The translations under genes and the position numbers were made by a program. Positions 3,811 to 56,896 of a stretch of 64,000 bases of DNA are shown here, one piece after another. The number at the start of each line of letters is the position of its first letter. Within the stretch, counting starts at the first letter, position 1. Under the pieces are notes generated by a model. The model was not told the DNA's origin and searched no databases. It saw nothing but the letters and a program-made list of their open reading frames with translations. The DNA is from a virus: IMG/VR virus record IMGVR_UViG_3300037993_001242, positions 135,099-199,098 of that record; one strand, written 5' to 3'.

Positions 3811-4203
3811 ATGAAAGATACATAGGTTTCAAACGGTTCCTGTCTCCGGCTCTACGCGCTCGTGCGCACGGATGCAGGCATGTCTCCCGGCAAGACAGCT
3901 TCACAGGCCGGTCACGCTTACCTCGGAGCGTTCATCGAGGCTTCCCGCAAAACTCCTGACGCCGTTGCTGTCTACAGCAGCGAGCATCCCACGCCCGGCA
4001 CCAAGGTCTGTCTCAAAGGCAACCTGAACACCCTCCGGCGCGCTCAGGAAGAAGCCCAGAAGGCGGGTATTCCCCACTGCTTGATCATTGACTCAGGCTG
4101 CAAAAATTTCTTCAATGGTGAGCCGACCGTCACGGCGCTCGGATTTGGCCCGGCCACTGAAGAACAACTCACACCGTTTTTAAGGAGACTTCAAGTTTTA
4201 TGA
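3811..4203 (+). CDS. pth2: Peptidyl-tRNA hydrolase, PTH2 family, with in-frame TAG at 3823-3825
   Basis: LYALVRTDAGMSPGKTASQAGHAY, TKVCLK, IIDSG and TVTALGFGP motifs; ATG 3811 is in frame and no ATG/GTG/TTG lies between the TAG and GTG 3862. Confidence 0.8.
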
Positions 4204-4210
4204 ACAATTT

Positions 4211-4356
4211 GAGCAAGTGGCAGAATGGGACAATGCAGACCACGGAGAAAACTACGGCTAACAACCGAGACGGCGAAAGTATACGCGTGAAATCGCTGGA
4301 ACAACGTGAAATCCTAACCGTGCGACTTGGTGGTTCGACTCCACCCTTGCTCACCA
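4211..4356 (+). tRNA. tRNA-like RNA 1 with about 65 extra nt in the anticodon arm
   Basis: Acceptor GAGCAAG/CTTGCTC plus A-CCA; D arm GCA-GAATGGGACAA-TGC; T arm GGTGG-TTCGACT-CCACC; helix CACGG/CCGTG encloses 72 nt. Confidence 0.8.
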
Positions 4357-4362
4357 ATTTAC

Positions 4363-4501
4363 GGGGTGCATTACACACAGAGGAAACTGGCCCTTGGGGT
4401 AAAAGCGCAGACCAGAGAGAACGTGTGGGAAGTAGCATTATGGCAATGCCGCAGTACGCAAGTGCTGTGCTAAGTGGGTTCGATCCCCACCCACCCCGCC
4501 A
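4363..4501 (+). tRNA. tRNA-like RNA 2 with a 63-nt insert in the acceptor strand and a GCAA tetraloop instead of an anticodon loop
   Basis: GGGGTG[insert 4369-4431]G pairs with CCACCCC, then G-CCA; D arm GCATT/AATGC; T arm GTGGG-TTCGATC-CCCAC. Confidence 0.7.
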
Positions 4502-4508
4502 ATTTAAT

Positions 4509-4588
4509 GCGGAGGTAGCTCAGTTGGCAGAGCGCGTGGAGCCTTCACAGGTTTCACGAGGTCGGACGTTCGATCCGTTCCCTCCGCG
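4509..4588 (+). tRNA. tRNA-like RNA 3 with an extended 9-10 bp anticodon stem; loop contains TCA
   Basis: Acceptor GCGGAGG/CCTCCGC; D arm GCTC-AGTTGGCA-GAGC; variable loop AGGTC; T arm GGACG-TTCGATC-CGTTC; no encoded CCA. Confidence 0.8.
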
Positions 4589-4601
4589 ACACTTACAAAC
4601 A

Positions 4602-5093
4602 TCACAACAGTCCGAGACTTTTATTTGTGACAGCCATCTTACCAAATATGCGCACAGATTCCTCGTCAAAGACAGCCGCAGCTTCCTGCGGCGTTGCATG
4701 GTATCCAAAATTTTTACGGCCATTGTTGATATAGATCACAGCGCGCCAAGGCCGTTTGCGATTTCCACGAGGATCAAGTTCAACACCTTTGAAGAAACTC
4801 TTACTGCTGCGCACAACCAGACATTGTCGCCTACTCTTGAGATTGCAGCGCATGTGACTAAAACCAACGTTGTTGAGATCGAAAAACAGTTCGATGGCGT
4901 TTGGTTCGTGCAGCCACGGTTTAACATGATCAATCGTAAAATCATTCACGGAAGCAATCAATTTTCCACAGCGTATACATGTAGCCATACCGGCTTTTAC
5001 TGCCAGCATATAAAGCAACATTTTCCGCAAACGATTACTGGCCGTACCAACTGACATGCCCAACTGCCTTGATTTTTCAGCATTTTTATCCAT
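4602..5093 (-). CDS. HNH endonuclease with C-terminal AP2 DNA-binding domain
   Basis: CIRCG...IDHVKP...SHMRCN HNH core; FKGVE...PWRAVIY...FGYHATPQEAAAVFDE AP2 pattern. Confidence 0.85.
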   Translation of the reverse strand: MDKNAEKSRQLGMSVGTASNRLRKMLLYMLAVKAGMATCIRCGKLIASVNDFTIDHVKPWLHEPNAIELFFDLNNVGFSHMRCNLKSRRQCLVVRSSKSFFKGVELDPRGNRKRPWRAVIYINNGRKNFGYHATPQEAAAVFDEESVRIFGKMAVTNKSLGLL

Positions 5094-18942: not shown

Positions 18943-20313
18943 TTAAATAGCCGCCTTGTCACTCCAGTAGCGCGCCAGTGCAACTCGCGCACAGCGCTCC
19001 TGAAACTGCGCTCCAGTTTCGCCCCCTCCCTGCGACACTGCAATCTCAATCTCGGCTGGATAATCCCGCAGTACGCGCTTGGCCACACCCCGGCGGCAGT
19101 GTTCGTCCAGCGGGCCAAATTCCAAAATCCGGTCAATCCGGCCCGGTCGGGTGGTCATTTGACCGGTACCTGCAATTCCGAGCGCTTCGTCAATGGCGTT
19201 GACGTGGTTGGTGGTCACCACGAGAAAGATGCCATCCACCGAATCAATGCCACCGATGGTGTTCAACAAACAATCAAAGGTCAGACCGCCGCCGTCTTCG
19301 CTGAGTTTGTTGGTGCGCTTGTCAAACGTAGCGTCGATGTCCTCGATCAAAGCAATGCACGGCACACTGGTCAGTATCTGCCGCCACGAGTTCACAAATT
19401 CGCGATTAGACATGCTGGTCAAATCGAAAATACAAACCGGCAAATCTTCAGTCTGCGCCACGGCGCGCACCAACGAGGTTTTGCCCGTGCCCGGCCTCCC
19501 GTGAAGCAGCCAGCCGCGCCGCCACGGGATTTGGCGTTCCTTGTACCATTTTTCGCTCACCTTCCAGCGGTGGGCTTCCTCCACCAGTTCCAGCACTTCC
19601 GCCGGGTAGCACAGCACATCAAAAGGCGAAACAACTTCCATGATTTCAACGCCGATCTCGTCCCGTTTCCAGCGCAGCAGGCGCACCGATTCATTCATCC
19701 GCCGGTCATTGATGCCTTTGGAACTGCACCCGGCAGCCGTGGGCATGGCAGGTTCGTCCTTGTTGCCGTAACCCCGGCGTCCACCTGACCCAAAAACCCG
19801 GTCGATGTAAAAACGCCGTTTGCTGCCGTATCCGTTGGCGTCGTTTTTATTATACCGATCCAGCGCCTCCAAAATCAGCTTATCCGGGTCAAAGGTACCC
19901 CGGATGAAGCGGATCGTGGCTTTGAAATTTTTGCTTTCGGTTTTTGGCACGCCCCCTTCCCAGCCGCCGTCGGTCTGTGCTCCAAAGCCACAAAGGATTG
20001 GCCGCCAGCCCGACCAAAATAAAATGGCGTCCTTGCCCAGCATTTCGTAGGCAATACCAATAGTGCGCGCCACCGGGCGCACAAACAGATTGTCCCCGGC
20101 ATAGTCTCGCGGCCCGATGGGAGTCCGTCGCATCGTCGCCCAACAATAACCCGCTACCGCATCCAGCACCGGAGAGCCGTCAATGCGTACCGTGACAATA
20201 AACAGGCTGATCAAACGGGTGCCCACGCCGCGAATCCAGCCCCACGCCAAAGCCAGAATGCTGGCCAGCGTCAGGCCGCCGAAAATTGAGGTAGTGACAG
20301 GATTAAGCGCCAT
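18943..20313 (-). CDS. BCS1-like AAA+ ATPase with an N-terminal membrane anchor
   Basis: WRRGWLLHGRPGTGKTS, LIEDID, LLNTIGG, VVTTNH, RPGRID; hydrophobic N-terminus. Confidence 0.85.
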   Translation of the reverse strand: MALNPVTTSIFGGLTLASILALAWGWIRGVGTRLISLFIVTVRIDGSPVLDAVAGYCWATMRRTPIGPRDYAGDNLFVRPVARTIGIAYEMLGKDAILFWSGWRPILCGFGAQTDGGWEGGVPKTESKNFKATIRFIRGTFDPDKLILEALDRYNKNDANGYGSKRRFYIDRVFGSGGRRGYGNKDEPAMPTAAGCSSKGINDRRMNESVRLLRWKRDEIGVEIMEVVSPFDVLCYPAEVLELVEEAHRWKVSEKWYKERQIPWRRGWLLHGRPGTGKTSLVRAVAQTEDLPVCIFDLTSMSNREFVNSWRQILTSVPCIALIEDIDATFDKRTNKLSEDGGGLTFDCLLNTIGGIDSVDGIFLVVTTNHVNAIDEALGIAGTGQMTTRPGRIDRILEFGPLDEHCRRGVAKRVLRDYPAEIEIAVSQGGGETGAQFQERCARVALARYWSDKAAI

Positions 20314-30312: not shown

Positions 30313-30516
30313 ATGAGCACACCAACAACAAAAACAGCCGGTATGCCGGTGACTTTGGTACCCAATCCCGGTTCAGCCGACGACGCCAGCAGCGGAGCCG
30401 ATACCCACATCAACTATGCGGGGCCACCAACGGAAAATCCACCGGTAACGCTGGCATACATCGTCGTAGACACAAATGGCCAACAATGGCAGTACTACCA
30501 AGGAGGCTGGAACTGA
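30313..30516 (+). CDS. Small PVTLVP-motif protein (67 aa)
   Basis: GMPVTLVPNPGS; C-terminal VVDTNGQQWQYYQGGWN. Confidence 0.65.
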   Translation: MSTPTTKTAGMPVTLVPNPGSADDASSGADTHINYAGPPTENPPVTLAYIVVDTNGQQWQYYQGGWN

Positions 30517-30520
30517 TTTT

Positions 30521-32521
30521 ATGCGAAAAACTATCTTGTTGATTTTAGTATTAACGTTTGTAAACGTGGTTTTTGCAAACATTTATACAGGCACTCTAAA
30601 TGGAAACGTAAATGGGCCTTCCAGCTATGCAACAAATGCCGGTGTAGCAAATACTGTTTCTAGTACAAACTTCAACGACCAGTTGGCCCGAAGCAATACC
30701 AACGCTCCCAATCTTTCAGTTGGCTACTCCACCACGGCGACGAATGCGTGGGTGTTAAAAGGCGGGGGATATGTTGACACTAACCCGGCAGTTTATGGCA
30801 GTAGCGGAAAAAAGATTTACTTCAATTCTTATCCAAATTATCCCGGCTTCGATGCTCAGGCAAACATTTTCAACATTTATGGTGACACAACCGGGATTCA
30901 ATTTTTGGGCTATGACGGAAGTATCCAAGGTAATTTCAAGGGCGACAATTTTAAAATAAAATCCGGCGGGAATATCCCAATCGTTGTGGATAACCACCTT
31001 GATATGCGCCAGATGGAACCTGTGCCGATATTGCTTTACTCGGATTGGTTTGAAGTTGAAACCAACCATACCGAATCATGGACAACCAACAAAATATATT
31101 GGATGTACACCAACGGTCTTTATGCGGCTGGTTACAATTACTTTGAGATTGATGATGGTTGGATGGCAACGGCCAGAATTGGTGGCCATCTTGTGCCCGA
31201 CCCGGCTAAGTTCCCGCATGGCATAACCAACATCACCGCCTTTGCCCACTCTCTTGGTATAAAGGTCATCATCTATGATGTTGGAGGATTGACCACTTGC
31301 GCGGGTTTTCCCGGCTCGACAGCAAACTATGTGCAGCAGGATGTAGTTGATTTCATGCTCTGGGGGTTAGATGGAATTTTTGTGGATGGTTGTGTCGGCA
31401 GGCCGGAAGTATCGGGTAGTATGTTTTCGACCGCCATCCTCAATGCTGGCAATCAGGTTGGCCAATACGGGCTTGGAATTACTTTATCAAACAATCCTTC
31501 CATGCTGTTAATGGGGTCAGTAAATTACGTTGGTTATGGCACAAGCACTCTGGTCAAAGATGCGAGAAGCCAATCATTGAATTTCAATTCGTCGGTTCTT
31601 GGGGTGCCGTTTTTCGGTGACCAATATACTGTGGAAGCGGTTGCTACCAGCGGAAAAGTTCTTCTCGAAGATACATCTGAACGAGACATCGGGAATTATT
31701 TTTCTCTGCATGATTGCATTGGAGCCGTTCCCTGCGGAATAAGTCAGTTGGTTATGACTACGAATGCCCAGCAAGCATTTGTGACTATGAGCGCAATGAT
31801 GCCGGGCGATGTCTGGTTGACAGGAGTTACCAATCCCATCAACCTTTTCCCGTTCACAAACTTGGAAGTGAATGCAGCGATTAAAAATCCTTTGTGTTCG
31901 CCGGGAACGCTGATTTCGTCAAACACGCAAGCGATGGTGTTTACCCGCGCCCTTGGTTCTTATCCGGCTACAAATGTTCCGCCAACTATAGGAACGAGCA
32001 ATCTGGTTGCCTTCTTCAACTTCAGCAATGTCGCTCAGAATGTCGCGGTAACGTTGCCATCCGGCAACTATTACAACGTTCGCGATCTGTGGTTCCAGAC
32101 GAACTTCGTTGGCCCTGCGACCGGCACATTTTCCTTTTTGGTTCCATCTAACAATGCAAGCCTGTTTTTGCTTCAACAGGTGCCGAACACGCTCGTTGGC
32201 GGAATTCTTCTTTCCAATGACTTTGCGAATGGGGCATCCATTTATTTGCCCGGCGGCACAAACTCAGGATCACAAGCAATAAGGGTCGGAGGGTTTTTGG
32301 GGGCCTCTACAACGCCCGGAATTACATCTGACAACACGACCCTGATTCTGGTTGGAGGGGGTTTCGCCGGGACTCAATTTCAAAACAAAGCGCGCAACCT
32401 GATTACGGGACAAATTTACGACAATGGAACTTTTCAAATTGTCGGCCCTCTGATTGTCGGGGTGCAGGTGGTATATCCTCACTTAACCAACCATGTTTAT
32501 ACTTGGACTGATGCCCCATGA
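30521..32521 (+). CDS. GH27 (alpha-galactosidase family) glycoside hydrolase with signal peptide
   Basis: MRKTILLILVLTFVNVVFA signal; GYNYFEIDDGW, PDPAKFPHG, TCAGFPGS, WGLDGIFVDGC; C-terminal VAFFN...VRDLW beta-sandwich. Confidence 0.85.
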   Translation: MRKTILLILVLTFVNVVFANIYTGTLNGNVNGPSSYATNAGVANTVSSTNFNDQLARSNTNAPNLSVGYSTTATNAWVLKGGGYVDTNPAVYGSSGKKIYFNSYPNYPGFDAQANIFNIYGDTTGIQFLGYDGSIQGNFKGDNFKIKSGGNIPIVVDNHLDMRQMEPVPILLYSDWFEVETNHTESWTTNKIYWMYTNGLYAAGYNYFEIDDGWMATARIGGHLVPDPAKFPHGITNITAFAHSLGIKVIIYDVGGLTTCAGFPGSTANYVQQDVVDFMLWGLDGIFVDGCVGRPEVSGSMFSTAILNAGNQVGQYGLGITLSNNPSMLLMGSVNYVGYGTSTLVKDARSQSLNFNSSVLGVPFFGDQYTVEAVATSGKVLLEDTSERDIGNYFSLHDCIGAVPCGISQLVMTTNAQQAFVTMSAMMPGDVWLTGVTNPINLFPFTNLEVNAAIKNPLCSPGTLISSNTQAMVFTRALGSYPATNVPPTIGTSNLVAFFNFSNVAQNVAVTLPSGNYYNVRDLWFQTNFVGPATGTFSFLVPSNNASLFLLQQVPNTLVGGILLSNDFANGASIYLPGGTNSGSQAIRVGGFLGASTTPGITSDNTTLILVGGGFAGTQFQNKARNLITGQIYDNGTFQIVGPLIVGVQVVYPHLTNHVYTWTDAP

Positions 32522-33600: not shown

Positions 33601-34254
33601 ATGAACCTCGTCATTGAAATTCGGGCCGCCGAAGGCGGTGATGATGCCAAACAATTGGTCGTCGAGCAATCCAAGCTGTACTCTCGCCTCTGTTCCAAAG
33701 CCGGTCTCTGACTGGAAGCGGTCGAAATCCGTCCCGGCTTCGCCGCACTGCGCGTCACCGGCGCTACTGCCCAACAAGTCTTCCAAAACGAATCCGGCGG
33801 CCACCGCTGGATGCGAGATCGCACCGGCAAAGTCCACACCAGCACCGTCACCGTGGCTGTCTTGGAAGAACCGACCTCCGGCCAACTTACGCTCAACATG
33901 GCCGACGTAGACATCACCGCCTGCCGGGGTTCCGGTGCGGGCGGCCAGCATCGCAACAAAGTCAGCAGCGCCATCCAGATCAGGCACCGACCCACCGGCT
34001 TGTACGTCCGCTGCGAGACCGAGCGGTCGCAGCACCAAAACCGGGAAATTGCGCTGGCCGTCCTGCGCGCCCGGCTGTGGGAGGCCCGCCAGCACGAAAC
34101 CGTCCAGCAGGCCAATGGCATCCGCCGCGACCAAATCGGCAGCGGAATGCGCGGCGACAAACGCCGGACGGTAGCGTTGCATCGGGGTGAAGCGGTGGAT
34201 CATATCACAGGAAAGCGCTGGCGCATTGTGGATTATCTCAAAGGCAACTGGTAA
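33601..34254 (+). CDS. Class I peptide chain release factor homologue (GGQ) with in-frame TGA at 33709-33711
   Basis: IEIRAAEGGDDA, NESGGHRW, GKVHTSTVTVAVL, GSGAGGQHRNKVSSA, ERSQHQNRE, QIGSGMRGDKRRT all in one frame either side of the TGA. Confidence 0.9.
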
Positions 34255-38748: not shown

Positions 38749-40485
38749 TTACTCTCCGTTTCCATTTTGGCTGGCGCGTCCGTCGATAGCGCCAGTGGTT
38801 TGGTATTGGTGAACCCGTTGTACCGCCTCGCCCAGAAGCTGCTCAGACGTGGGCTTATGTTCGCTCTCGACCATCTCAATGTGTTTCTTGAGCGCTTTGG
38901 CCGCCAGCACCAGATCGTTGGCCGTGACCTTGCCCATGATTTCAGTGCCTTCGCGATGAATCGCAAAGCGCTTGGCTTTCTGCACCGCCTCGGCAATGAA
39001 CGAGGGCACAAACCCGGCCAGTTCTTTGCCCGCCTCAGTCAGGTCGATGTCCTTGACCAGCAGCGAATGGCCGTCATCGTTCCGGGCAAACATCTGCACA
39101 AACCGAACCGAGGTTTTGCCATCCGGCGCATCCAAACTGATGACCGTGTCGATGCGCCCGGCGCGTAGAAAAGCCGGTTCGATGTCTTCGGGCTTGTTGG
39201 TCGTCAGGATAGTGATGATCGGCTTGTCCTTGGTGTCCACGCCGTCGATGGTGTTCAGGATTTCGTTGATGTCACCGTCGCGGTCGCCGCTCATGACCTG
39301 ATCGATGTCCTCGGCGAACACCACCGCCGGTGCGTACAGTTGCGCCAAGACCAGCGCATCAGCAAGCTGCTCGGCATTCTTGAGGTAAATAAACGTCCAA
39401 CCATTGCGGACGCATTTGGAGGCCAGCACGCGAGCCGCCAACGTCTTGCCGGTGCCGTACGGCCCCATCAACAGGCAGCCGTGCTTGAGTGGGATGTTGT
39501 TGCGCAAGCACGCCTCGGTTTTCTCGATCAAGGTGAAAACGTTGGCCCGCAGTTCAAAGTCCGTCACGTCGTTCAAGATCAGCATATTTTCATCCACGTT
39601 CTTCACGTCGATGAAATTGGGCGCGTCGTTAATGGGATTAAAGCGCCGGTCTTCGTCGATGAACGACAGGTCAATGGTGATCGCCTGCCCTTTGTAAATG
39701 CTCTGCTCCTTGAGCCGCTGGCGCGCCAATGCGATGATACGCTTGACCTCTGGCTCAAACTTGCGCTTGATCTCGCCACGCAGTACCAAGGCGGCATCCT
39801 TGGCCAGTTCAGTATCGAAGAAGCCACCTTCCCACTTCGGGATGGCGATCCGGCCCAGCGGAGCCGTCTCGAAACCGCCGTTGGCCAGCGGCACCTGAAC
39901 CATCATTGGTGGCTCTTTTTCGCCGAAAAAGCCGGGCGTGTCTTCCAAGCTGGCAAAGCCGTATACTTCCTTGAGCGCCCGCATCACCGCCACGATGCCA
40001 TCCAGCGGATAGCAAGCAATTTTGTCGAAGATGGCGACTTTCTTTTCCTCGGCCTCTTCCTGCCGCTTGAGCCAAATATGCGCTTCGGGGTAGGACATTC
40101 CTTCGGGAATGATGATCTGGGTGCCTTCGCGGAGAATGCGCACTTCCTTGAAGGTCGTACCGTCGTTGGCTTCGTCATCCGCTGATTTACGGAAGGGTGT
40201 TGGTGTAAGGGTTGAAGGTTGTACGTCGGCCATGTTCATAGATTTTTTGGTGTAGTTGCCGGGTGGCATAGATTTGTCTGGTGCTTTCAGTTGTTTGGTT
40301 TCAGTGGGTTTAGGTTCTTCAAGGAGTTCGATGTCCATGGGCCGTATCCCTGCGGCCATACCCAAGCGAAGATGGAGCCTTTCAGCCAGTATGTGCATCA
40401 CTTGGCTGAATGCCTCCATTTCTTCGATGGGAACCTGCGTGGAAAACGTTTGGCCCGAAGGCAACTGAACAAATACTTGTGGCAT
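38749..40485 (-). CDS. AAA+ ATPase (single AAA module, long N-terminal region)
   Basis: GCLLMGPYGTGKT, VFAEDID, ILNTIDG, LTTNKP, FLRAGRID. Confidence 0.9.
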   Translation of the reverse strand: MPQVFVQLPSGQTFSTQVPIEEMEAFSQVMHILAERLHLRLGMAAGIRPMDIELLEEPKPTETKQLKAPDKSMPPGNYTKKSMNMADVQPSTLTPTPFRKSADDEANDGTTFKEVRILREGTQIIIPEGMSYPEAHIWLKRQEEAEEKKVAIFDKIACYPLDGIVAVMRALKEVYGFASLEDTPGFFGEKEPPMMVQVPLANGGFETAPLGRIAIPKWEGGFFDTELAKDAALVLRGEIKRKFEPEVKRIIALARQRLKEQSIYKGQAITIDLSFIDEDRRFNPINDAPNFIDVKNVDENMLILNDVTDFELRANVFTLIEKTEACLRNNIPLKHGCLLMGPYGTGKTLAARVLASKCVRNGWTFIYLKNAEQLADALVLAQLYAPAVVFAEDIDQVMSGDRDGDINEILNTIDGVDTKDKPIITILTTNKPEDIEPAFLRAGRIDTVISLDAPDGKTSVRFVQMFARNDDGHSLLVKDIDLTEAGKELAGFVPSFIAEAVQKAKRFAIHREGTEIMGKVTANDLVLAAKALKKHIEMVESEHKPTSEQLLGEAVQRVHQYQTTGAIDGRASQNGNGE

Positions 40486-41088: not shown

Positions 41089-42045
41089 TTAGTGCGGCTT
41101 GAGCAAACGATATTGACCGCACATCAACACAACCTGAATGGCCAGCAGTGCCAGCCAGACGACGAACCACAGGCACCGATCTTTGGTCGGCAATTCGGGC
41201 CGCTCGTCTTGGTCTGGTTCCTCAACCGTACTACCCTCCCGCCGCCGAATCCGCCGGTGGAACCACTCGCCCAGCCAATAAAGGGCCGCGATGAACGCGC
41301 CGAAAGAGCAATCGACCATGTTCGCCCAGAAATGATGACCAACATTAAGGCAGGTTAAAAGCAGCATGACCCAGAAAATAGAGTATACCGCCACCGCCTT
41401 ACGCCTGTGTGTCCAGCGGTCAATGTCCATGACCACGAGTATCCACAAAATCAACATGCCGGGTTCACCCACCATGGCGGTAAACACCAGCAGCAAACCA
41501 TAACCAAGGTAGCGTAGCCGGTAGTCCGTGGCCTGCGTGATCCGCCCGCCGTCAAAGGGCGAGATCGGGATCATGTTGAAGAGGTTGATGGCGACACCGA
41601 TCAACGACGCGGACAACCAGAAACGCTGGCCGTTGAACAAGTAGGGCAGTGCAAAAACCATGGCTGCAATCGTACCCAGCAACGGCCCGCCCAGACCCAC
41701 GTAGGCTTCGTCGTGCCGGTTGTTCAAACGCGGGCCGAAGATTACTGCCCCCAGAAACGGAATGAAGATCGGCAGCCGCAGGCCGAAGCCTTTTTGTTTG
41801 AGTGCCAGCACATGGCCCGTTTCATGCAGGAAGATCAACAGCAACAGGGCTACAGCCATCGCCAGACCCAAGGCAAACGATTCGCAAACGCTGAACAGCA
41901 CCATGCTGATCATGGAGATGAAAACCTTCAGCAGCTTGAACGACTTGAGCAGCTTGGCGGATTTGGCCAACATGCCCACCATGATCTTGGCGTGCTGACC
42001 GAAAAAACTTCTTCGAGGATGTGGTTCCGCGTTACCAGAGGTCAT
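41089..42045 (-). CDS. Site-2 protease (peptidase M50) family membrane metalloprotease
   Basis: HETGH zinc motif, FIPFLGA, GGPLLG, NLFNMIPISPFDGGR. Confidence 0.9.
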   Translation of the reverse strand: MTSGNAEPHPRRSFFGQHAKIMVGMLAKSAKLLKSFKLLKVFISMISMVLFSVCESFALGLAMAVALLLLIFLHETGHVLALKQKGFGLRLPIFIPFLGAVIFGPRLNNRHDEAYVGLGGPLLGTIAAMVFALPYLFNGQRFWLSASLIGVAINLFNMIPISPFDGGRITQATDYRLRYLGYGLLLVFTAMVGEPGMLILWILVVMDIDRWTHRRKAVAVYSIFWVMLLLTCLNVGHHFWANMVDCSFGAFIAALYWLGEWFHRRIRRREGSTVEEPDQDERPELPTKDRCLWFVVWLALLAIQVVLMCGQYRLLKPH

Positions 42046-55303: not shown

Positions 55304-55825
55304 TCCAAATCATTCTTCGCAAATGCACCAACGGCAACCGCAATACCGGCAGCCGGTACCGTCATGCTCTGGAATCTCGGCGTTGGCCGCATACTCAATC
55401 TCGATCTGCTCCTGCCGCGTGCGGCCCGCATGGTGCGCCTTGGTGCAGATTGGATCACAGGTCACGGTCTTTGGGTTCTGGTTGACAACCCGCGCACCGC
55501 ACACCACGCATTTGCGTCCCGGCCTCTTACTGCTCATACGCGTAAAGAACAGCCAGCGCGTGCGTCCACCTGCCCCCTGTTTAAAAAAGCAAGCGACGCC
55601 AAACGATACCAGACCGATGGTTTGTTCCTCACCGGTAACAATAAAACCCGGCCACGTCGTTCCACGCTGGCAAAACTCGCTGTGGATGGCGGCATTAGAC
55701 CCGTATTATTGAAAACACAGAACTGTTTTCAGTGCCCGTGTCACTATCCGCCGGGTCATCACAAATCATGCCACCTGTTATTAAACGACGATCCCACAGC
55801 TAACCGCCGCTCCATTGCGGATAAA

Positions 55826-55855: not shown

Positions 55856-56896
55856 CAAGCCAAATGCACAACCAACTGCAAACCAACCAAGTGTGCATAC
55901 TGACGCCGCCAATTTTTGTGCCATACAGGTCAAGTTGATGGCATAACAGCCCAAAACCACCTGCACAATACTATTGACAGTGTTTACTTTTCAGATTCAA
56001 AGATCAGTTTGGGCAGGAATCCAGCCTCTGTTCCCGGCTCCCGTGATTCAACCCAGATGCCTTCAATCGATATGTGCCTGCCACAACCGCCGCAAATAAA
56101 CGTAAAATGATCGGTTTGAGCCGGATCGATCTCATACTCCGTGCCCAGCGGGATTTCGTCCTTGAGCACTGGAAAGCCGCACGGGCAGATGCTCAGGCGC
56201 TTGAGCGTGACTTTATCGGCCATAACCGGGGAATATCAATTGTCCGTGTGGGTCACAAGTGCATTTGGGATACTCTTTGCGATGGCGCGCCATGATACGC
56301 TTGAAATGTCTGCGGGTTGTATCGGCAAACACGCACCACGACGCGTCCCAATCATTTGGCCCCAATTTTGCCGCCGCCAACCTGACTTCTCGTGGCAGCA
56401 GGTCTGGGCGCTTGACCGGCTTCAGGCACTCCAGCCGGATGGGCACTTCCGACGCGTATTTTTCTTCGCGGATGAACTTGATCCTATTCCTGATTGGCTC
56501 GGTGGCTGGCTCCAGCAATGACCGATGATGGATGTGCCAGTACAGTTTGGGTTTTTTCATGAACATCGAATTTCGTAGCGAGCAAGACGCCTGCTATTAT
56601 GGGCAGCGTCTGCAATTTGAGGGCATTTTTGCAAGTTATCCAAAAACTCCAACCACCACGCCGGAAACAATACTTCTTGACTTTTTGTGGCGGTGGTCTT
56701 TAGCATAGCTAAAGACCAATATCCAATGTATACAACAAAAGCAAGCCAAAAATGCCGTTCGTGATATTTTCATGATTTTGTCAGCAACAAAATTTACTGA
56801 AACCAAATTGTCGTGGTGCTGGAAGCTCGTCCTTTTGGCGGCGCTATGCCTGCTGGGCGGGTTCTTTGCCTACCTCGACATCGCCTTGACCCCGCC

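Follow-up and report, generated by a model that had tools for sequence, protein, structure and literature searches.

A viral gene for an RF1-like mini release factor was found to carry an in-frame UGA at codon 37, exactly at the codon where most of its relatives carry a +1 frameshift gate. Judged from the comparison of these relatives, the in-frame UGA is conserved and derived from the frameshift gate. The UGA probably works as a read-through gate equivalent to the frameshift gate of the relatives, such that only read-through would yield the full factor. The window analysed here is a stretch of 64,000 nucleotides, the final 64 kb of a 199,098-bp linear viral record with an estimated completeness of 82%. 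The following features of the window are used below.

33601 to 34254, plus strand: mini release factor gene, with ATG at 33601 and TAA at 34252-34254; 217 residues on reading through
33601 to 33708, plus strand: codons 1-36, with the Pfam PCRF match from residue 2; strand beta1 and helix 14-33 in the structural model
33703 to 33714, plus strand: putative recoding site GGT CTC TGA CTG, in which the in-frame UGA is codon 37 (33709-33711)
33712 to 34254, plus strand: codons 38-217 and TAA, covering the remainder of domain 2/4 plus the GGQ domain 3
33802 to 33843, plus strand: shortened recognition loop HRWMRDRTGKVHTS, residues 68-81, placed by alignment to T. maritima RF1
33940 to 33948, plus strand: GGQ catalytic motif, residues 114-116; G114, G115 and Q116 are invariant in the family alignment

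The TGA at codon 37 is followed by 180 further codons in the same frame, and no in-frame ATG, GTG or TTG occurs between codons 38 and 71. Gene callers turned the gene into a 147-residue fragment. No promoter or terminator was found by scanning the locus, and the neighbouring genes received no function from Pfam or PHROG. Additionally, a 681-residue ORF 1 kb upstream (30476-32521, plus strand) contains an alpha-galactosidase (Melibiase_2) domain, an unusual phage cargo. AAA ATPases are encoded at 18943-20313 and 38749-40485, and an M50 peptidase at 41089-42045.

Residues 2-85 of the read-through protein matched Pfam PCRF (PF03462, profile positions 101-194; 42.8 bits) and residues 96-200 matched Pfam RF-1 (PF00472; 97.4 bits), both above the cut-off. 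These two matches bear out the claim of an earlier note on this DNA that the gene resembles release factors before and after the TGA without a change of frame, giving 217 residues. The best NCBIfam match was RF1 (NF001859 and TIGR00019, profile positions 105-317 of 347). Its scores were far under the equivalog cut-offs (167.3 bits versus 400 and 162.6 bits versus 423), because the match starts at profile position 105 and domain 1 is missing. The absence of domain 1, also pointed out in the earlier note, was seen again in PDB chains, where the start of the protein corresponds to RF1 residue 88-110. RF2 scored 120 bits. Sequence and fold searches of the PDB agreed with this assignment, with RF1 chains at about 6e-36 and PrfH (9mor) at only 1e-11. 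Moreover, a protein search returned RF1-like proteins in the thousands, which are about 217-230 residues long and lack domain 1. In the AF2 model (mean pLDDT 80), a strand at residues 2-9 and a helix at residues 14-33 lie ahead of the TGA and the next strand spans residues 37-44, which indicates, at the level of the model, that residues 1-36 are integral to the domain 2/4 fold. We take the helix at residues 14-33 to be the one with which RF1 recognises the first stop-codon base.

Compared with Thermotoga RF1, 4 residues are missing from the recognition loop HRWMRDRTGKVHTS, which also lacks the Pro of the PxT motif, as the earlier note had in essence described. The gap falls at VPVT in the T. 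maritima RF1 alignment; its exact placement is ambiguous, and Thr75 may still match the Thr of PxT. Most family members have the loop HRWQRVPPTEKRGRVHTS. The confidence of the AF2 model is low at this loop. At a position that is presumably Q181 of T. thermophilus RF1, Gln is found in RF1 and in at least 90% of the aligned family members, but the window protein carries Met. Meanwhile, the helix tip, the HTS segment and GGQ were kept. We consider it probable, from these comparisons, that the gene product is a functional RF1-derived mini release factor with domains 2, 3 and 4 and GGQ. A plausible guess is that it terminates translation while reading stop-codon positions 2 and 3 in an altered or relaxed way.

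The codon-independent rescue role proposed in the earlier note found no specific support, since the protein has no ArfB-like tail and no RtcB partner and retains the helix that presumably reads the first base. Specifically, ArfB scored 42.1 bits against a cut-off of 100, matched residues 94-129 only and was rejected; the C-terminal basic tail is absent. PrfH, which works with RtcB2 on damaged ribosomes, resembles the window protein in lacking domain 1, in having GGQ and in its altered decoding loop. However, the match to PrfH (TIGR03072) was weak, at 69.1 bits versus a cut-off of 166.65, and RtcB (PF01139) had no match in the 199-kb record, whereas the control genomes were positive; a PrfH/RtcB system was therefore rejected. 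No second RF-1-domain gene was found in the phage.

In total, 83 sequences were classified, comprising 80 viral-contig relatives (contigs mostly of 50-600 kb), L001, L003 and the window gene. The relatives came from alignment-based scans, and a single-protein scan of viral contigs gave no matches. At the homologous codon, 71 of the 83 genes have a +1 frameshift site, always with CTT before the stop (TGA in 57, TAG in 13 and TAA in 1). A C follows the stop in 55 of these 71 genes, and CGGAGG occupies positions -9 to -4 in 36. Six genes are uninterrupted, with a sense codon at the site. Five have an in-frame stop at the same codon (the window gene, L003, L004, L008 and L009), and one (L074) has an in-frame stop elsewhere. 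In-frame TGAs at other codons near the gate were seen in L074, L101 and L247 (6 codons away), L210 (9) and L244 (-1).

The cassette of the relatives is of the prfB type, consisting of an SD-like GGAGG, 3 nt, CTT, a stop and C. It was also found in 49 of 80 metagenome loci (32 TGA and 17 TAG) and in 9 bacterial-genome loci, mostly Myxococcota. The family as a whole counts roughly 360 viral and more than 500 metagenomic loci. The bacterial copies of the family, located on the Archangium gephyra chromosome and in Sandaracinaceae, Labilithrix and Bradymonadia MAGs, were all of the +1 frameshift type. The gate lies in domain 2, 31 codons after the start of the xIRAAEGG motif, and this spacing is equal in the window gene and the frameshift-type genes. 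We take the site to correspond to 'ESRGF|K' of E. coli RF2. The window gene falls inside the mini RF1 family tree, with the family size of about 217-230 residues, no domain 1 and the same gate spacing. The TAG form of the sensor stop was gained or lost at least 10 times on the tree, counting well-supported branches alone. No clear correlation between stop type and loop motif was visible on inspection of the family. The 4-residue loop deletion arose several times independently across the family.

Two clades with an in-frame stop at the gate codon were recognised. Clade A, with the topology (window gene, L003), (L169, (L004, L167)), was supported by an SH-aLRT of 95.6, and GGT CTC TGA is in frame in all five members. 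A DNA pattern specific to clade A matched only the L004 contig. Within the clade, the tree path between the window gene and L004 is about 1 substitution per site and the GC content of the contigs ranges from 0.31 to 0.57. Nevertheless, the 9 bases GGTCTCTGA are identical in the clade while nearby synonymous sites vary. Clade B contains L009 (CTA TGA CTG), L168 (TAT TGA CTG) and L008 (TAT TAG ATG). Both clades are nested among frameshift-type genes, which indicates, on the evidence of the tree, that the in-frame stop was derived from the frameshift gate independently at least twice. Clade A lost the SD-like element, and a non-slippery CTC took the place of the slippery CTT. Specifically, the window gene has AAA GCC GGT where relatives carry CGG AGG GGT, so the traits of a +1 cassette are absent from it: it has CTC TGA, continues in frame 0 and lacks an SD-like stimulator 3 nt upstream.

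These relatives bear on several claims of the earlier note. Conservation of the stop, which it proposed to test in homologues, held in all five members of clade A; most relatives are of the frameshift type, and 6 of the 83 have a sense codon. Its link between the in-frame stop and the deleted loop was contradicted, as the two traits are independent: L169 combines a complete PPN loop with GGT CTC TGA, and the loop is short in the frameshift-type genes L001, L006, L015, L055 and L020/21. The contrast it drew with prfB frameshifting was likewise overturned by the derivation of the window site from a prfB-like cassette. What stands of its overall interpretation is a functional gene with a selected UGA that needs recoding; the loop-stop link and the prfB contrast do not stand, and the rescue role lacks specific support.

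Codon 37 of the window gene was confirmed to be TGA in the context GGT CTC TGA CTG, as the earlier note had read it, and the same 12 bases are present in L003 (GCA_052916105.1), an independent 3.1-kb contig from an unrelated assembly with 95% nucleotide identity. The two genes differ by 7 synonymous and 0 non-synonymous changes in codons 1-36 (neutral chance 4.5e-5), and pN/pS was 0.17 for codons 38-70 and 0.10 for codons 38-217, at a pS of about 0.26. Purifying selection on both sides of the stop was also detected between L004 and L167 and in three clade B pairs, with pS up to 0.86. The lack of non-synonymous changes upstream and the low pN/pS downstream indicate that the sequence on either side of the TGA is read in frame 0 and constrained by selection. 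The TGA also sits in an invariant run of 62 nt, which was not significant (P 0.21). Overall, an in-frame stop was found to be conserved across diverged relatives with purifying selection downstream. The comparison thus argues that the TGA at codon 37 is real, conserved and kept by selection, and the comparative evidence supports the requirement of a recoding event at the UGA for the full-length product.

A pseudogene, a recent nonsense mutation or an assembly error at the TGA might be suggested by the sense codons found at the site in 6 of the 83 classified sequences and in about 60 database proteins, mostly Thr, Glu or Ser. This explanation is highly improbable in view of the same TGA in an independent assembly and throughout a five-member clade spanning about 50% protein identity, the purifying selection on both flanks in every pair tested, and the lack of any further stop or frameshift in the gene besides the TGA at codon 37.

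TGA is an ordinary stop in this phage, which appears to use the standard code. It is the commonest stop, ending 139 of 300 crude gene calls, and both neighbouring genes stop at TGA. Global reassignment of TGA was rejected, as the coding density was 0.90-0.91 under code 11 and only small gains were obtained under other codes. These data, including a density of 0.91 under code 11, speak against the proposal that the UGA is an ordinary sense codon without any gate, read by a specialised suppressor tRNA or under a code that the phage or its host has reassigned. It would draw on the fact that the phage carries an amber suppressor tRNA and hence manipulates stop decoding, on the 82% completeness of the record, which could place an opal suppressor tRNA in the missing part, and on two relatives whose TGA was translated as Trp. 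The latter are the database proteins P0039 and P0056, in which Trp at position 37 reflects gene-caller translation of TGA. However, no tRNA with a UCA anticodon was found in the 199 kb by ARAGORN (default or relaxed) or the Rfam tRNA model. The regions of L004, L008 and L009 had densities of 0.87-0.88 under code 11, and the stop in clade B is TGA in two members and TAG in the third. We regard a sense UGA as very unlikely.

Several tRNA candidates were considered in this connection. Two opal suppressor candidates from relaxed ARAGORN (genome 63972-64061 and 69077-69161) were not reproduced, and the extra Rfam tRNA hits were a tRNA-Ser(CGA) and an odd tRNA-like element. The phage tRNA-Trp was rejected as a Hirsh-type suppressor, since its 11:24 pair is an ordinary C:G. 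The amber suppressor tRNA (anticodon CUA) lies outside the window at genome 111560-111633 on the minus strand and was called by both ARAGORN and the Rfam tRNA model. About 45 of the 300 crude gene calls nonetheless end in TAG, and no Pfam domain spans the TAG in three TAG-joined phage ORFs.

About 40 tRNA genes and a tmRNA (55346-55771) are located outside the window at genome 50-75 kb. Default ARAGORN found no tRNA-Leu in this array, and relaxed settings gave odd-structured Leu genes at 56098, 56507, 58449 and 58540. A phage tRNA-Leu(GAG), if existing, would read the CUC that precedes the UGA. A tRNA-like element at genome 68449-68518 on the minus strand scored 36 bits with the Rfam tRNA model, and ARAGORN gave it a shortened anticodon loop with a two-base 'anticodon' (gg). 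Inside the window, ARAGORN called a tRNA-Val(CAC) at 4508-4590 on the plus strand, with its anticodon at the unusual position 39. This call is probably spurious, because it lies inside an ORF (4200-5054) and no tRNA match at the Rfam gathering score was found across the window.

Insertion of selenocysteine at the UGA could in principle use a hairpin predicted 9-38 nt past the UGA in the window. However, the fold was no better than that of shuffled sequence (z near 0), and the minimum-energy fold of L003 differs. A tRNA-Sec was recovered neither by ARAGORN at default settings nor at Rfam gathering scores. Moreover, position 37 is variable and of the surface type in homologues (T, E, S and D), and one clade B member has TAG there. 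The probability of selenocysteine is next to negligible.

The main rival to read-through is termination followed by re-initiation. In this scenario, the ribosome would stop at the UGA, release a 36-residue peptide and restart at the codon next to it, which is CTG in the window gene and ATT or ATG in relatives, giving either two polypeptides that assemble or a C-terminal piece active alone. The codon after the stop is CTG in four, ATT in two and ATG in two of the 8 in-frame-stop genes; CTG, ATT and ATG are all able to serve as start codons, so a start-like codon follows the stop in every case. Met at this position is found in 0 of 112 frameshift-type genes and 1 of 59 uninterrupted genes, and L008 has AAGGGA six bases ahead of TAG-ATG. 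However, the same codon pattern would arise equally if a hydrophobic residue were needed and the stop had to be followed by a weak A or C; all 8 genes have A or C as the first base 3' of the stop. Poole et al. are said to have reported in 1995 that A or C after the stop are weak termination contexts in E. coli. Clade A lacks an SD-like sequence ahead of the restart codon, and the window gene, L003, L004 and L167 would depend on the poor starts CTG or ATT. Re-initiation also gives no role to the conservation of GGT CTC at synonymous positions, and it would separate a strand and a helix that are integral to the domain 2/4 sheet in the AF2 model. Additionally, the fused protein is made by every frameshift-type relative. 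We therefore consider re-initiation, whether of two assembling pieces or of one active piece, to be unlikely.

A Leu-to-Leu hop across the stop (CUC UGA CUG) was also rejected as a general route, because the stop is followed by ATT or ATG in L004, L167 and L169. Read-through at the UGA is the route we favour. Release at CUC-UGA, catalysed by host RF2 or the phage's own factor, would yield only the 36-residue peptide. When decoding of the UGA is slow, a near-cognate tRNA, most likely tRNA-Trp, would read through and the 217-residue factor would be made. The window lineage evolved from the frameshift form, and the read-through gate would retain the logic of the ancestral prfB-type +1 frameshift gate at the same codon. 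The suggestion of the earlier note that the factor is made when UGA termination is weak may be kept as the natural reading, the homologous codon being mostly a stop-sensing +1 frameshift site. No stimulator of read-through was seen, as shuffled sequence folds just as well as the sequence downstream. Bacteria usually read through UGA at a basal level of only a few per cent, and the output of the factor would therefore be low.

What such a gate would sense may be considered further. If the factor behaves like RF1, it is not expected to recognise UGA, and the gate may then monitor host RF2 instead of serving autoregulation. Because the sensor flips freely between UGA and UAG across the family, either the factor would read all stops or the gate would sense host factors. 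We tentatively speculated, with more doubt than confidence, that synthesis of the mini release factor is always tied to failed termination at one sensor codon, and that the factor, whose decoding loop is degenerate in the window protein, may be an omnipotent or relaxed-specificity terminator that is switched on when host release factors are limiting or disabled. In the same tentative reading, the sensor codon might have been rebuilt repeatedly, as +1 frameshifting at UGA, UAG or UAA and as in-frame read-through at UGA or UAG.

To our knowledge, prfB has so far been the only release-factor gene under the control of its own kind of signal. The frameshift site of E. coli prfB is codon 26, in domain 1. 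In both systems, a release-factor gene is broken early by a stop that senses, or in the window gene probably senses, termination efficiency; the relatives have the same cassette as prfB, and the window site is homologous to theirs. However, the window gene has CTC instead of CTT, no SD-like element and a continuation in frame 0, which would make the product of a +1 shift meaningless. Its site lies in domain 2, at codon 37 of an RF1-like protein without domain 1, and relatives also use TAG. The closest systems are the frameshift-gated phage mini RF1 relatives themselves (71 + 49 + 9 loci), which share the protein family, the gated codon and the phage or mobile-element setting, whereas the window lineage has an in-frame stop instead. 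In bacteriophage Q-beta, a leaky UGA is read by a near-cognate tRNA, which extends the coat protein into the A1 protein. There too a leaky UGA in a phage gene gives a longer functional protein, but the short product of Q-beta is the main functional protein. In the window gene, the short product is a 36-residue fragment, so only the read-through product could be a release factor.

In a 2025 survey of prfB, TAG occurred in 0 of 8,164 prfB motifs and no frameshifting was reported in prfA (PMC12421855). The GeneTack study listed prfB as the sole release-factor frameshift cluster (PMC3711429). Reports on recoded or huge phages described full-length RF1 and RF2 and mentioned no internal recoding (10.1101/2021.08.26.457843; PMC7162821). 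Like the phages of Borges and Al-Shayeb, the window phage has a class-I release factor alongside tRNAs, a tmRNA and a suppressor tRNA; unlike them, it appears to use the standard code rather than a recoded stop codon. No description of the family was found in full-text literature searches, which does not prove that none exists.

If the tentative reading of the sensor were true, the family would provide a second, convergent autoregulatory circuit of release factors and the first one that uses read-through. Independently of that reading, a prfB-type cassette has arisen at a different place in an RF1-type protein, and the family offers a natural comparison of frameshifting and read-through as sensors of termination efficiency, with short cassettes that can be transferred directly into reporters. 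On the practical side, such genes are truncated or mistranslated by gene callers. More broadly, the finding may point to termination capacity as something that large phages monitor and supplement.
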